Positions 48,201 through 54,200 of a DNA stretch of 64,000 nt are shown here, in pieces. A program made the position numbers. How positions within the stretch are numbered: position 1 is the stretch's first letter; each line of letters begins with the position of its first letter. The DNA is taken from NCBI RefSeq assembly GCF_048403405.1, contig NZ_CP183129.1; one strand, given 5' to 3'. The DNA is from Escherichia coli (GTDB lineage Bacteria; Pseudomonadota; Gammaproteobacteria; Enterobacterales; Enterobacteriaceae).

Positions 48201-51200
48201 GATGCGCGCTTGTACACAGACAGTGTGTTTCAGTAATATGGAGAATAATGAAATGAATAACACAGACACATTAGAAAAAATAATCAGACACCAAAAAAAC
48301 AAAGACCCCGCATATCCCTTTCGGGAGCATTTGTTGATGCAACTCTGTATTCGCACAAATAAAAGAATGCAGGATAATATATCTGAATTTCTGGGGGTGT
48401 ATGGAATAAATCACTCAGTATATATGGTTCTCACCACATTATTCGCAGCGGAGAGTCATTGTCTGTCACCTTCAGAGATAAGCCAGAAACTTCAGTTTAC
48501 CAGAACTAATATTACCCGCATTACAGATTTTTTAGAAAAAGCCGGATATGTAAAAAGGATGGATAGCAGGGAGGATCGCCGTGCTAAAAAAATCAGTCTG
48601 ACATCTGAAGGTATGTTTTTTATTCAGAGGCTCACTCTTGCACAAAGCATGTATCTGAAAGAAATCTGGGGTTATCTGACCCATGATGAACAGGAACTGT
48701 TTGAAGTCATTAATAAAAAATTACTGGCGCATCTTGATGATGTCAGCTCATAAAGCGTGAAATGCCTGAGTATGCCGGATAGCTTCAGGCAAAAGAATAA
48801 TGATTCTTGCAGATGTGTTGTAAGCGTACAGCGAGGGCCGTATTGACGGGGATGTGTTATTCAGCTGGCAGTGCTATGCGCCACGGAAGCAGTTCGCTGA
48901 CCCGGTTGACCGGCCAGTCTGCTATGACGCCAGGCACATGGCGAAGGTAGCTTTCTGGATCCACGTCATTCAGTTTGCACGTCCCGATCAGGCTGTACAG
49001 TAGTGAGGTAGCCTGAGTTTAACGGACACTCCTTCCTGAAATAGAATGGCATCAGAAGGAGCTAAGTAAGCGTGCAGCAAGAACCGTATTGACGGGGATG
49101 TGTTATTCAGTCGGCAGTGCTACGCGCCAGGGGAGCAGTTCGCCGACCCGGTTTATCGGCCAGTCGGCTATGACGTCAAGGACATAGCGGAGGTAGCTTT
49201 CTGGCTCCACTCCGTTCAGTTTGCACGTCCCGATCAGGCTGTACACGGGGTAGTGATTCAGGGAACGGCTTACGGGTGCGGGTCTGACGCAACGGACGCT
49301 GTACTGCCGGGTCATACACCCTACCAGTCAGCGTATCGCTCTCTTTCTGAAGCCGGTTCAGATCGGCTTCCATTTGTGCGATACGGCGGGAGACTTTTTC
49401 GGAACGACTGCCGAAGTTCATCCGGCGGAGTTTATCCAGCTGCGCCTGCAGATGGTCTATTTCGCGCTCCCGGTTGCTCAGCTTTTCCTGCAGGGCGTGG
49501 ATCAGCGCTTCCTGTTCGGCCAGGCGCTGTTTCAGCAGGAAGATGTCGTCAGAAGAGATGTCGTTCATAAGCCCGTATTTTACCGGGCTTATTCTGTGAC
49601 AACCAGGATAAAGAGATTTACAGCATGGTCAGGGAGGTCAGCAGCCGCTTAGGCTGTCGCCAGTCGATACCTTCCAGCAGCATCGCCAGCTGCGCCTGTG
49701 TAAGGAACACTTTGCCATCACGGGCTGACGGCCAGGCGAAGCGCCCACGCTCCAGCCGTTTGGTCAGGAGGCACAGTCCGTCACCGGTGGACCACAGCAG
49801 TTTAACCTGACTGCCGCTGCGGCCCCGGAAAATGAAAACATGGCCGGACATGGGATCGTCTTTCAGCGCCGTCTGTACTTTCGCAGCCAGGCCGTTGAAG
49901 CCATTTCTCATATCGGTGATACCGGCAACCAGCCAAATTTTGGTCCCGGAAGGTAACGGGATCATCGCTTCAGTTCCTGTATCAGCAGAGTCAGGAGCTT
50001 TTCGCTGACATTGCCATTGAAGCGGAGCGTCCCGTGCCGGAACGTTACCTCACAGCTGATACTGAGGGTTTCCGGGTCCTCTGCGAGCGATTCTGGCTGT
50101 TCGGCAGCTGCATCGAGAGTCACAGGAAGTAGCTGGGGGCTCTCTGAAGAAGGTAATAGCAGCTTTCCCTCGCGCCATTGTTGTCGCCATTTGAACAACA
50201 GATTGGCGTTAATGCCATTTTCAAGAGCAAGTTTTGAGATGGATATCCCGGGTTCACAGGAGGCAGCAACGAGCTGCTGTTTAAATTCGGGAGGATAATT
50301 AGGGCAGCCTTTTCGCCTGCCGGGAGTCACATTTTTCTGCATATCTGACACTTTGGTTCCCACTACTTATTTGGTGGACACCACTTTGTCTAATTTGTCA
50401 GATTCTGACCAGACGGTTCAGGCTGTACGCTTACAGAGCTAATAATGAGCAGAAAAAACCAACGTTACTCTAAAGAGTTCAAAGCCGAAGCTGTCAGAAC
50501 GGTTCTTGAAAATCAACTTTCGATCAGCGAAGGCGCTTCCCGATTATCTCTTCCTGAAGGCACTTTAGGACAATGGGTTACCGCCGCCAGAAAAGGGCTC
50601 GGTACTCCTGGTTCCCGCACGGTGGCTGAACTGGAATCTGAAATTCTGCAACTGCGTAAGGCGTTAAATGAAGCTCGCCTTGAGCGAGATATATTAAAAA
50701 AAGCAACAGCGTATTTTGCACAGGAGTCGCTGAAAAATACGCGTTAATCGAACAATGGCGACAACAATTTCCCATTGAAGCGATGTGTCAGGTATTTGGT
50801 GTATCCAGGAGCGGTTATTACAACTGGGTACAGCATGAACCCTCAGACAGAAAACAAAGTGATGAGCGGCTAAAACTGGAGATTAAGGTGGCACATATCC
50901 GCACTCGCGAAACATATGGAACCCGGCGGCTCCAGACGGAGCTGGCAGAGAATGGCATCATCGTTGGTCGTGACCGACTGGCACGTCTTCGTAAGGAGCT
51001 AAGGCTACGCTGTAAGCAGAAACGCAAGTTCAGAGCGACTACGAACTCGAACCACAATCTGCCAGTTGCGCCAAATCTGCTGAACCAGACGTTCGCTCCT
51101 ACAGCACCAAATCAGGTCTGGGTGGCGGACCTGACGTATGTTGCCACACAGGAGGGATGGTTGTACCTCGCTGGCATCAAAGATGTTTATACGTGCGAAA

Positions 51201-54200
51201 TTGTCGGCTACGCCATGGGAGAGCGCATGACAAAAGAGCTGACAGGTAAAGCCCTGTTTATGGCGCTCAGGAGCCAGCGCCCACCTGCCGGGCTAATCCA
51301 CCACTCTGATCGAGGTTCACAGTACTGCGCATACGATTACCGGGTCATACAGGAGCAGTTTGGTCTGAAAACATCAATGTCGCGTAAAGGTAACTGTTAC
51401 GACAACGCTCCGATGGAAAGCTTCTGGGGAACGCTGAAAAATGAGAGCCTGAGCCACTATCGTTTTAATAACCGGGATGAAGCCATCTCAGTAATACGGG
51501 AATACATTGAGATTTTCTACAATCGTCAGCGTCGTCACTCTCGTCTGGGGAATATCTCCCCGGCAACCTTCAGGGAAAAATATCATCAGATGGCTGCTTA
51601 AAAAAAGAACAAATGGTAGTATCCGCTATTGCCAGTACACCTCACTCCCCTGACTCCACCTCACAGCGGATTGTGTATTTTTAAACAATCACAGTCTTCT
51701 CATATACTTTCCATTCTGAAGCTTACCTCTTCCTCTGTGATAAGCTTCCGTCGCGGGATGTGTTATACGCCCTGTAAGACAGTTATAAAGGACATCAATG
51801 CCATAGTTAATGACTACCGAATTCCAGTGGATAGTCAGTACTGGTTTGCCACAAAACAGTGCAGTCACACATGACAGGAGAAGATATGAGCCGGATACCG
51901 CGGCTCTGAGACTTAACGCTCATGTAAACTTTCTGTTACAGACTCTTCCAGAGGACTAAGAAGATAGCTGATTACGCTTCGCATTCCAGTCTTTATTTCT
52001 GCAGTGACAGCCATACCCGAGCTTAATGGAATGTGCTTATTCCCGGTTGACAAATCATTCTCTTCAACAGAAACAATGACATTAAAAACGAGTCCCAGTT
52101 TCTGGTCTTCTATTGCATCTAAATTTATATTTTTCACCTTACCCACCAGATAACCATATCGGGTGTAAGGAAAGGCCTCCACTTTAATGATGGCATTCTG
52201 CCCGACGTTAATAAAACCAATATCTTTATTTTGTACCAGAGCAGTAACCTCCAGCGTGTCATCTTCCGGAACGATGACCATCAGTGTTTCCGCTGTTGTA
52301 ACAACCCCACCTTCAGTATGAACCTTCAGTTGCTGAACTTTTCCCGAAACAGGGGCCCTGATTACTGAAGCCTGTTGACGCTCTTCATTTTTCTCTAACT
52401 CCAGAGTTAATAACTCAATGTTGTCTGTTGTTTGTCTTAGCTTGTCTAAAATTTCATTTTTAAAAAGCTGCGTGACAAGCTGATATTCTTCTTTTGCAGA
52501 CAATATCTCACTCTCAATTTGCTCCAGTTGCGATTTATAAACCCGTAATTCATTTGCTGCCTCGACATATTTATTCTCCTGCTCAAGTACAGCATGTTTT
52601 GCAATTGCCTGTTTATGCAATAAACTCCTGAAATCATCCAGACGGCTTTTTTCAACTCTCGATAAATTTTCATAACGGTTTATACGGGCAAGTATTGTTA
52701 ATCGCTCTGCTCTTTTCTTATCCAGATTCAGTTCTTTTTGATACTTCTGATTTTGCCATGTGGAAAACTGTTCTTTTATCAAAGAAGTTAAACGCAGTAC
52801 TTCCTCTTCAGATACATTCTGAAAATAAGGCTCATCAGGAAGCTTCAGTTCAGGTAGTTTATTTAATTCAATTGACCTGCTCAGAATTTGATACCGAGTT
52901 TGTTCCAGCCTGGTCTGTAACAGTGATGACTGTGTTTTTAACGTATCAGCTTCAGCTCCCAGTGCTGTAAGCTTTAATAACACATCCCCTTTCCGGACTG
53001 ACTCTCCTTCTTTTACGATAATTTCTTTAACTATTGAGTTTTCAATAGGTTTAATTTCTTTGCTGCGCCCACTTAGTGTTAATTTCCCATTTGCAGTGGC
53101 AACAATTTCCACCTGACCTAAAACAGATAAAATGACAGCAATAACCAGAAACCCCATAATAAAATAAGCAACCAGACGCGGCCGTCTGGATACCGGCGTT
53201 TCAATTAATTCCAGATGAGCGGGTAAGAATTCATTTTCGTCCTTTTCACGTACCGGAGTATCTAATTGCTTCCGGATTTTCCATGTTTCACTCCAGACAA
53301 GTTTATAGCGCAACAGGAACTCGCTGAACCCCATTAACCATGTTTTCATATTCTTCTGTTCTTTCTGTTAGTCTGACTGTAACTGATATAAGTAACTGTA
53401 TAAACTTTCCGGTTCAGAAAGCAGTTCCTTATGTTTACCCTGTTCAACAATTTTCCCTTTTTCCATGACAATAATGCGGTCTGCATTTTTTACTGTAGAC
53501 AGACGATGAGCAATGATTATAACCGTTCTGCCCTTACATATTTTGTGCATATTGCGCATGATGATATGCTCCGACTCATAATCCAGAGCACTGGTTGCTT
53601 CATCAAAAATAAGTATTTTAGGGTTGTTCACCAGCGCCCTTGCAATTGCGATGCGTTGACGTTGACCTCCGGATAATCCTGCCCCCTGTTCCCCGACAAT
53701 GGTGTTATACCCCTCACGCAATTCAGAAATAAAATCATGAGCGCCTGCTAATTTCGCTGCATAAATAACTTTTTCGACGGACATACCAGGATTAGCCAGT
53801 GAGATATTATCAATAATACTGCGATTAAGCAGCACATTGTCCTGCAACACAACCCCCACCTGACGACGTAACCAGTTAGGATCGGCCAACGCAAGATCAT
53901 GTCCATCAATTAAGACCTGGCCATTTTCAGGAATATAAAAACGTTGAATTAATTTAGTTAATGTGCTTTTTCCTGAACCAGAACGTCCGACAATACCAAT
54001 AACCTCCCCCTGCTTAATACTGAGATTGATATTATCTAAAATAACCGGAGAGTCAGGCTTATAGCGAAACCGGATATTACGAAAAGTGATATTACCATTA
54101 ATTTCCGGTAATGCCAGTTTCCCATGATAACTTTCAGTTGGAGAGTTAAGCACATCACCAAGGCGGGTAACTGATATACCAACCTGCTGGAAATCCTGCC

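Follow-up and report, generated by a model that had tools for sequence, protein, structure and literature searches.

An IS600 copy split by a chimeric IS66-family element between papX and hlyD in Escherichia coli

Where does the left end of an IS3-family element lie when its transposase genes begin directly behind the terminal repeat of another insertion sequence? The question is raised by a 64,000-nucleotide stretch of Escherichia coli DNA (NCBI RefSeq assembly GCF_048403405.1, contig NZ_CP183129.1; hereafter the window), in which an element with orfA and orfB abuts an IS66-like end. The first-pass annotation had placed this element at 50445–51601, had considered its left terminus not identifiable and had supposed that one of the two elements was inserted into, or had truncated, the other. 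Its assignment to the IS3 family was borne out by a match to the NCBIfam profile NF033516 and can be narrowed to IS600. In RefSeq, 50445–51601 is a two-piece coding sequence, not flagged as a pseudogene, under the name 'IS3-like element IS600 family transposase, programmed frameshift'. The span has to be redrawn, as IS600 extends from 49004 to 51644 with an interruption. We put the probability at about 0.9 that the feature is one complete IS600 copy (IS3 family, 1264 bp) split by a 1369-bp non-autonomous IS66-family element inserted in its 5' leader.

The ends of IS600 and the element between them

IS600 belongs to the IS3 group of the IS3 family and was first described in Shigella sonnei; we take its ISfinder length to be 1264 bp. 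As full-length references we used plasmid copies from S. sonnei 53G, S. boydii and E. coli, to which both ends were aligned. These copies are 1264 bp long, start with TGAGGTAGCCTGAG… / TGAGGTAGCC… and end with …GCCAGTACACCTCA / …ACACCTCA, and have the ATG of orfA at element position 65; their 3-bp direct repeats are clean in two of the three (CTG and GTC). The right-hand piece in the window, at 50443–51644 on the plus strand, corresponds to element positions 63–1264, comprises orfA, orfB and the right inverted repeat (IRR) ending in …GCCAGTACACCTCA, and is 100% identical in E. coli CFT073 and many other genomes. IS600 homology in this piece begins only at element position 56 (50436).

Positions 1–62 lie 1.44 kb upstream, at 49004–49065 on the plus strand, and consist of the left inverted repeat (IRL; TGAGGTAGCCTGAG…) and the 5' leader up to GGAGCTAA, identical to the three full-length copies. 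A repeat finder had marked CTGAAATAGAATGGCATCA at 49036–49054, and reading 48740–49340 revealed IS600 1–62 followed by an IS66-type GTAAGCG… terminus. When the reverse complement of the IRR was used to look for a second IS600 end in the window with up to three mismatches, the IRR alone matched, because the two inverted repeats are too imperfect for such a search: their first 6 nt are identical, with scattered matches across about 27 nt. Alignment to full-length copies located the left end instead, and a local BLAST search identified 49004–49065 and the right-hand piece as the sole IS600 pieces in the window. The terminus held to be unidentifiable is thus present but displaced; the first-pass annotation had itself named an overlooked complete left inverted repeat as what would speak against it, which is in effect what was found.

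Joined, the two pieces give exactly 1264 bp, 99.7% identical to the three plasmid copies used as references. Four substitutions separate the joined sequence from the S. sonnei copy (positions 78, 148, 1186 and 1241), corresponding to T5N in OrfA, A375T in OrfAB, one synonymous change and one change in the IRR region; the last is also the only difference from the Shigella copies in the right terminal region (51602–51644, plus strand). The termini have the imperfect TG…/…CA form of the family, with TGAGGTAGCC… at 49004 and …ACACCTCA reaching 51644, and the orfA/orfB layout is that of IS600. Unlike the reference copies, this one is interrupted after position 62 and has no 3-bp direct repeat of its own, since TAG (49001–49003) stands on the left and CTC (51645–51647) on the right. 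The missing repeat argues for a rearrangement of a flank after insertion and not against the identity of the element as IS600.

The interruption, at 49066–50434 on the minus strand, is a 1369-bp element with both terminal repeats of the GTAAGCG…CGCTTAC type, starting with GTAAGCGTGCAGCAAGAACCGT… at 49066 and ending with …CGCTTAC at 50434, so that orfA does start 10 nt after the repeat, as had been noted. It is bounded by two copies of an 8-bp target-site duplication (TSD): the left copy, GGAGCTAA at 49058–49065, is IS600 positions 55–62, and the right copy, AGAGCTAA at 50435–50442, is identical to it at 7 of 8 positions, with G replaced by A at 50435. A reference ISEc8 from strain ERL06-2503 has identical termini and a perfect 8-bp TSD, GATTACGC. 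Intact termini together with a duplication of 8 bp of IS600 are the signature of an IS66-family insertion into IS600, and of the two possibilities first offered, insertion holds and truncation does not.

Local blastn resolved the intruder into two parts. Positions 49066–49245 are ISEc22 1–180 (100% identical; 88% to ISEc8), and 49244–50434 are ISEc8 1252–2442 (99.66% identical; 82% to ISEc22), with only CA at the join (…GTACA|CGGGG…) common to both. As in ISEc8 and ISEc22, which carry tnpA, tnpB and tnpC between GTAAGCG termini and make 8-bp TSDs, tnpA (50363–49962) and tnpB (49965–49618) are intact on the minus strand (NF047595 and NF033819), and LZ_Tnp_IS66 and DDE_Tnp_IS66_C were also matched among Pfam and NCBIfam profiles. 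The set lacks a full DDE TnpC: tnpC is reduced to its N-terminal ~121 codons fused to the C-terminal ~47 codons (tblastn matches to residues ~1–121 and ~466–512 of 512), with about 1.07 kb gone. With tnpC gutted in this way, the element is a defective derivative that cannot be autonomous. Gene conversion of an ISEc22 by an ISEc8 was considered as the origin of the chimera and ruled out, as the join lies at non-homologous positions; ISEc8-type sequence also extends to the last 7 nt of the element.

Junctions in other genomes and the order of events

The region has a counterpart of 100% identity in E. coli CFT073 (NC_004431.1, 3425832–3427096, reverse strand) and in many other genomes of extraintestinal pathogenic E. 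coli. It lies between papX and hlyD, with papEFG-II and papX to the left and hlyDBA(C) to the right, in the pap-hly pathogenicity island at pheV (PAI-pheV); the left flank of IS600 is a stub of ISEc8 (48820–49003). We counted the junctions of this arrangement over 5,426 complete E. coli genomes. The inner left junction, IS600(1–62)|ISEc22, was present in 96 genomes and the three-part junction ISEc8 stub|IS600(1–62)|ISEc22 in 97, from which it follows that the outer surroundings of the split left end are always the same in these ~97 genomes. On the right, 52 genomes have the inner junction, ISEc8 end|IS600(55…), and 48 have the junction of the IRR with the hlyD flank. As for further copies, CFT073 has IS600 at one place only.

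The excess of left junctions can be followed in strain 118UI, which is identical to the window up to 49245; from there the ISEc22 stub is extended to a full ISEc22, behind which come a phosphoethanolamine-transferase fragment and the integrase. A full ISEc22 is also present in CFT073 at 3410392–3412845, about 0.7 kb past the window end and beside the pheV-side integrase, with an internal stop in tnpC. It has the same orientation as the 180-bp stub inside IS600 and the same neighbour genes as in 118UI. The shared ISEc22 context and the identity up to 49245 indicate that the 118UI type is a recombination product in which the IS600 body and hly were lost, and by count about 44 further genomes look like this product. 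Hly-less derivatives such as 118UI are thus explained by recombination of the ISEc22 stub with the full copy beside the pheV-side integrase. Neither ISEc22 copy, stub or full, has matching 8-bp flanks. Past the window end in CFT073, the tnpC-side end of the full ISEc22 is followed by a short C-terminal fragment of another IS3-family integrase core (12847–13139 of the retrieved CFT073 stretch), which is not IS600 by blastn.

In the history that we favour, the chimera would have formed elsewhere, when an ISEc22 end (1–180) was joined illegitimately to ISEc8 1252–2442; transposase from a resident ISEc8 or ISEc22 would most likely have acted on it in trans, and it would have transposed into the IS600 5' leader between the IRL and the orfA start, duplicating IS600 positions 55–62. 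Three points weigh against this reading. The two TSD copies differ at one base, the ends of a chimera of two IS66-family members could in principle come from separate events, and the left junction is about twice as common among the genomes as its right counterpart, which the 118UI-type deletion explains but which a history of two insertions also fits. In that history, two IS600 copies would have received an ISEc22 and an ISEc8, respectively, at the same 8-bp site, and a deletion between ISEc22 position 180 and ISEc8 position 1252 would have made the chimera in situ. Besides the commoner left junction and the 7/8 match of the TSD, it would account for the non-homologous fusion of two different family members and agrees with a full ISEc22 at another place in the island that points the same way. 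It requires, however, two independent IS66-family insertions in an identical 8 bp of IS600; in none of the surveyed genomes is this site of IS600 occupied by a full-length ISEc8 or ISEc22, so that a parental form with both junctions is absent, and the 118UI-type derivatives suffice for the left-junction excess. We consider such a history unlikely. O157-type loci (e.g. in ERL06-2503), which gave 80% cover of the composite query, were rejected as instances of the same nest; they have a whole ISEc8, other debris and an N-terminally truncated IS600 instead.

Two simpler arrangements fare worse. An element whose left end was deleted at the IS66-like junction, leaving an end-less but coding-intact fragment from about 50436, is what a reader going rightward from 50436 would see, as IS600 begins abruptly at position 56 straight after an IS66-type repeat. 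This reading is refuted by the presence of IS600 1–62 at 49004–49065, where it abuts the opposite end of that IS66-family element, with the two pieces overlapping by 8 bp as a target duplication and adding up to exactly 1264 bp. Least probable of all, to the point that we give it almost no weight, is the reverse nesting, in which IS600 invaded an IS66-family element and the IS66 sequence around the pieces is the broken target. The ISEc8 stub on the outer left and a widespread ISEc8(1–208)|IS600 junction on plasmids of enterohaemorrhagic E. coli (EHEC) speak for it, and they indicate that IS600 did once insert into an ISEc8. That event accounts for the outer left flank only and not for the interruption: at 49066–50434 the IS66 element keeps both termini, and the duplicated sequence is IS600 and is 8 bp long, the IS66-family length, not 3 bp. 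To the right of the IRR, moreover, stands the hlyD flank and not ISEc8. For the inner junctions the reverse nesting is excluded, and we retain the insertion of IS600 into ISEc8 solely as the origin of the outer left flank.

A bolder reading seems doubtful to us: that the 1369-bp chimera is a non-autonomous IS66-family unit moved in trans, or that the IS600 leader is a preferred IS66-family target, with the 2641-bp composite movable by an IS600 transposase. If the chimera were mobilised in trans as a unit, IS66-family transposases would act on the mixed ends of elements that are 82–88% identical over their shared parts.

Coding frames, frameshifting and expression

IS911 and IS3 use programmed −1 frameshifting and transpose by a copy-out-paste-in route. 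The same organisation is seen here. On the plus strand, orfA (50445–50747) encodes 100 aa with HTH_Tnp_1, and the orfB part of OrfAB (50702–51601) encodes HTH_21 and rve domains; T5N and A375T are also the differences from the common IS600 protein. Relative to orfA, the orfB frame is shifted by −1; a TGA at 50681–50683 precedes it, and it is open from 50684 to its stop at 51599–51601. Its Pfam matches are rve, rve_2, rve_3 and HTH_21, with positions 2–102 of 102 of the rve profile covered. Both frames are intact, as first described, and the open frames overlap at 50684–50747. The overlap is one of open frames and not of independently started genes, as the orfB frame offers no ATG, GTG or TTG before 50783, 36 nt past the orfA stop. 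The orfB frame would therefore be expressible as a fusion only, like in other IS3 elements.

The slippery run AAAAAAAG lies within the overlap, at 50696–50703 on the plus strand (zero frame TTA AAA AAA GCA); an A7G heptamer had rightly been seen in the overlap, one position too far to the left (50695–50702), where base 50695 is a T. The plus strand of the window has 10 A7G runs, so the motif alone is not diagnostic and its place in the frame overlap is what counts; a second AAAAAAAG, at 51600–51607, overlaps the orfB stop (TAA AAAAAG). A −1 slip, when modelled, yields a 385-aa OrfAB that matches NF033516 (IS3 family transposase) with 414 bits against a cutoff of 160 bits, over positions 1–369 of 369. 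OrfAB contains a DD(35)E triad of D229, D289 and E325, the last two 36 positions apart with 35 residues between them, and K332 follows seven residues past the glutamate. As in IS911 and IS3, an A-rich slippery motif in the overlap is thus predicted from sequence to give a fusion with an N-terminal helix-turn-helix (HTH) domain and a C-terminal DD(35)E domain, and the overlap contains no separate start codon for orfB. Unlike in IS911, the motif is A AAA AAA G and not A AAA AAG in the same register, and no significant downstream structure is predicted.

The last point weighs against the favoured explanation: folding of 50690–50800 gave no significant frameshift-stimulating RNA structure 3' of the A7G run (z = −0.99). 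The lack of such a structure applies to every IS600 copy, as the region is identical to the reference, and the A7G run and frameshift region are 100% identical to functional-looking IS600 copies elsewhere. In the literature searched we found nothing specific on IS600 frameshifting or on IS600 in the CFT073 island, and no experiments on IS600.

Can this copy still move? Both inverted repeats, OrfA and OrfAB, the DDE triad and the frameshift region are intact, which favours competence. OrfA and OrfAB could still be made by the usual IS3 mechanism, in which slippage on A AAA AAA would fuse the HTH of OrfA to the DDE domain of OrfB, and OrfAB would then excise a circular copy and integrate it with 3-bp duplications. 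In IS911 and its relatives, the transposase promoter is in the IRL. Here, antisense IS66 genes put 1.38 kb between orfA and the upstream region carried by the IRL end, and the insertion changed the ribosome-binding motif ahead of the orfA ATG from GGAG to AGAG. The only promoter-like site on the plus strand upstream of orfA, TTAACG-17-TAGAAT at 49019–49047, is inside the displaced left end (weak evidence), and the consensus scan found none at 50364–50444. The separation from the IRL and the change to AGAG point to a copy that is most likely poorly expressed and a fixed relic; it is probably silent in cis, and it may be mobilisable as a 2641-bp composite given a supply of transposase. The junction counts and the single place in CFT073 gave no sign of past movement by the composite.

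Some points weigh against poor expression and immobility. The promoter scan is crude, as it detected 2 sites where shuffled sequences would give 2.9; expression could also come from read-through or from a promoter directed outward in the ISEc8 end; and a transposase acting in trans could still move the composite.

The outer flanks and the pap/hly boundary

The ISEc8 stub on the left of IS600 is on the minus strand and corresponds to element positions 1–184, that is, the terminal repeat at the tnpC end and the last ~49 codons of tnpC. It is 99.5% identical to ISEc8 1–184 of strain ERL06-2503, with a tblastn match to TnpC residues 464–512, and is recorded in RefSeq as a partial 'transposase domain-containing protein'. 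On the right, past 51644, follows the hlyD flank, and strain R4 shares the window sequence in its hly-cnf1 island only from 51645 onward, precisely from the right end of IS600. As the flanks of IS600 are mismatched (…TAG of the ISEc8 stub and CTC… of the hlyD flank), at least one side was replaced after the insertion of IS600. The replacement probably took place by an IS-mediated recombination or deletion that helped to join the pap and hly segments, and IS600 would accordingly mark a recombination boundary between island modules. The IS junctions mark the pap/hly module boundary of PAI-pheV.

Two further readings of the right flank were tried and rejected. The sequence at 51645–51912, taken as continued or diverged ISEc8, gave no significant match by blastn-short or by tblastn with TnpC. 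The R4 sequence to the left of the 51645 breakpoint, taken as a degraded IS600 end, gave a local alignment score of 11, which is in the range of shuffled sequences (mean 8.1, maximum 14). Directly left of that breakpoint (R4 locus 4985–5025), R4 has GCCAGTAC, the same 8 nt as found 6 nt inside the IS600 tip (GCCAGTACACCTCA), which is the sole shared stretch; this likeness could reflect IS3-type targeting of sequences resembling inverted repeats. The tip heptamer CACCTCA is repeated at 51660–51666 (51631–51666 examined).

The association of ISEc8 with the left end of IS600 is seen outside the island as well. On the EHEC plasmid pE2865-2 (3501–3981 of the retrieved stretch), ISEc8(1–208) is joined to IS600(1–273), which is then truncated, next to espP, and similar plasmids of the pO26, pO103, pO111 and pO145 types have the same arrangement. 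The junction is the association found at 48820–49065 of the window, with 24 nt more of ISEc8. A synthetic probe of IS600(3–62) and ISEc8(1–60) had both halves within one place in 223 genomes, a number that may include ISEc22-type junctions, and its top matches were EHEC plasmids.

IS600 at this site is already known, in the sense that its family was described long ago and that the reference genome in which it lies is fully sequenced and annotated; nesting of this kind is typical of island module boundaries. With its place between papX and hlyD in PAI-pheV of CFT073, the cluster belongs with the nested or mosaic groups of IS elements that occur where modules of uropathogenic E. coli islands meet, and has nothing unusual for its class. 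The RefSeq record annotates the IS600 transposase coding sequence and several 'transposase domain-containing' fragments, and not the element boundaries or the nesting. Recognising IS600 as 49004–51644, split by a defective IS66 chimera, corrects the mobile-element coordinates and adds little beyond annotation hygiene.

Some minor observations concern the same sequences. A 103.5-kb plasmid of an E. coli blood isolate (CP088648.1, 33706–34930) is 100% identical to 50436–51660 of the window, a stretch that takes in 16 nt of the hlyD-side flank, which suggests that the island segment with IS600 and this flank is also carried on a plasmid. More IS66-family debris is present in the window at 25518–26999 on the minus strand, diverged and about 65% identical to ISEc8 and ISEc22, and matches of 37–43 nt to the ISEc22 terminal repeat are found at 18971–19007 and 60185–60227, with one of the two some 1 kb upstream of hlyC. 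Finally, a perfect 15-nt inverted match, ATTGTTGTCGCCATT / AATGGCGACAACAAT, links 50177–50191 in the ISEc8 tnpA with 50754–50768 in the IS600 orfB frame. On both coding strands it reads W-R-Q-Q in the same codons, with a roughly estimated chance of about 0.01 for the 4.2-kb region, and we saw no functional reading for it.

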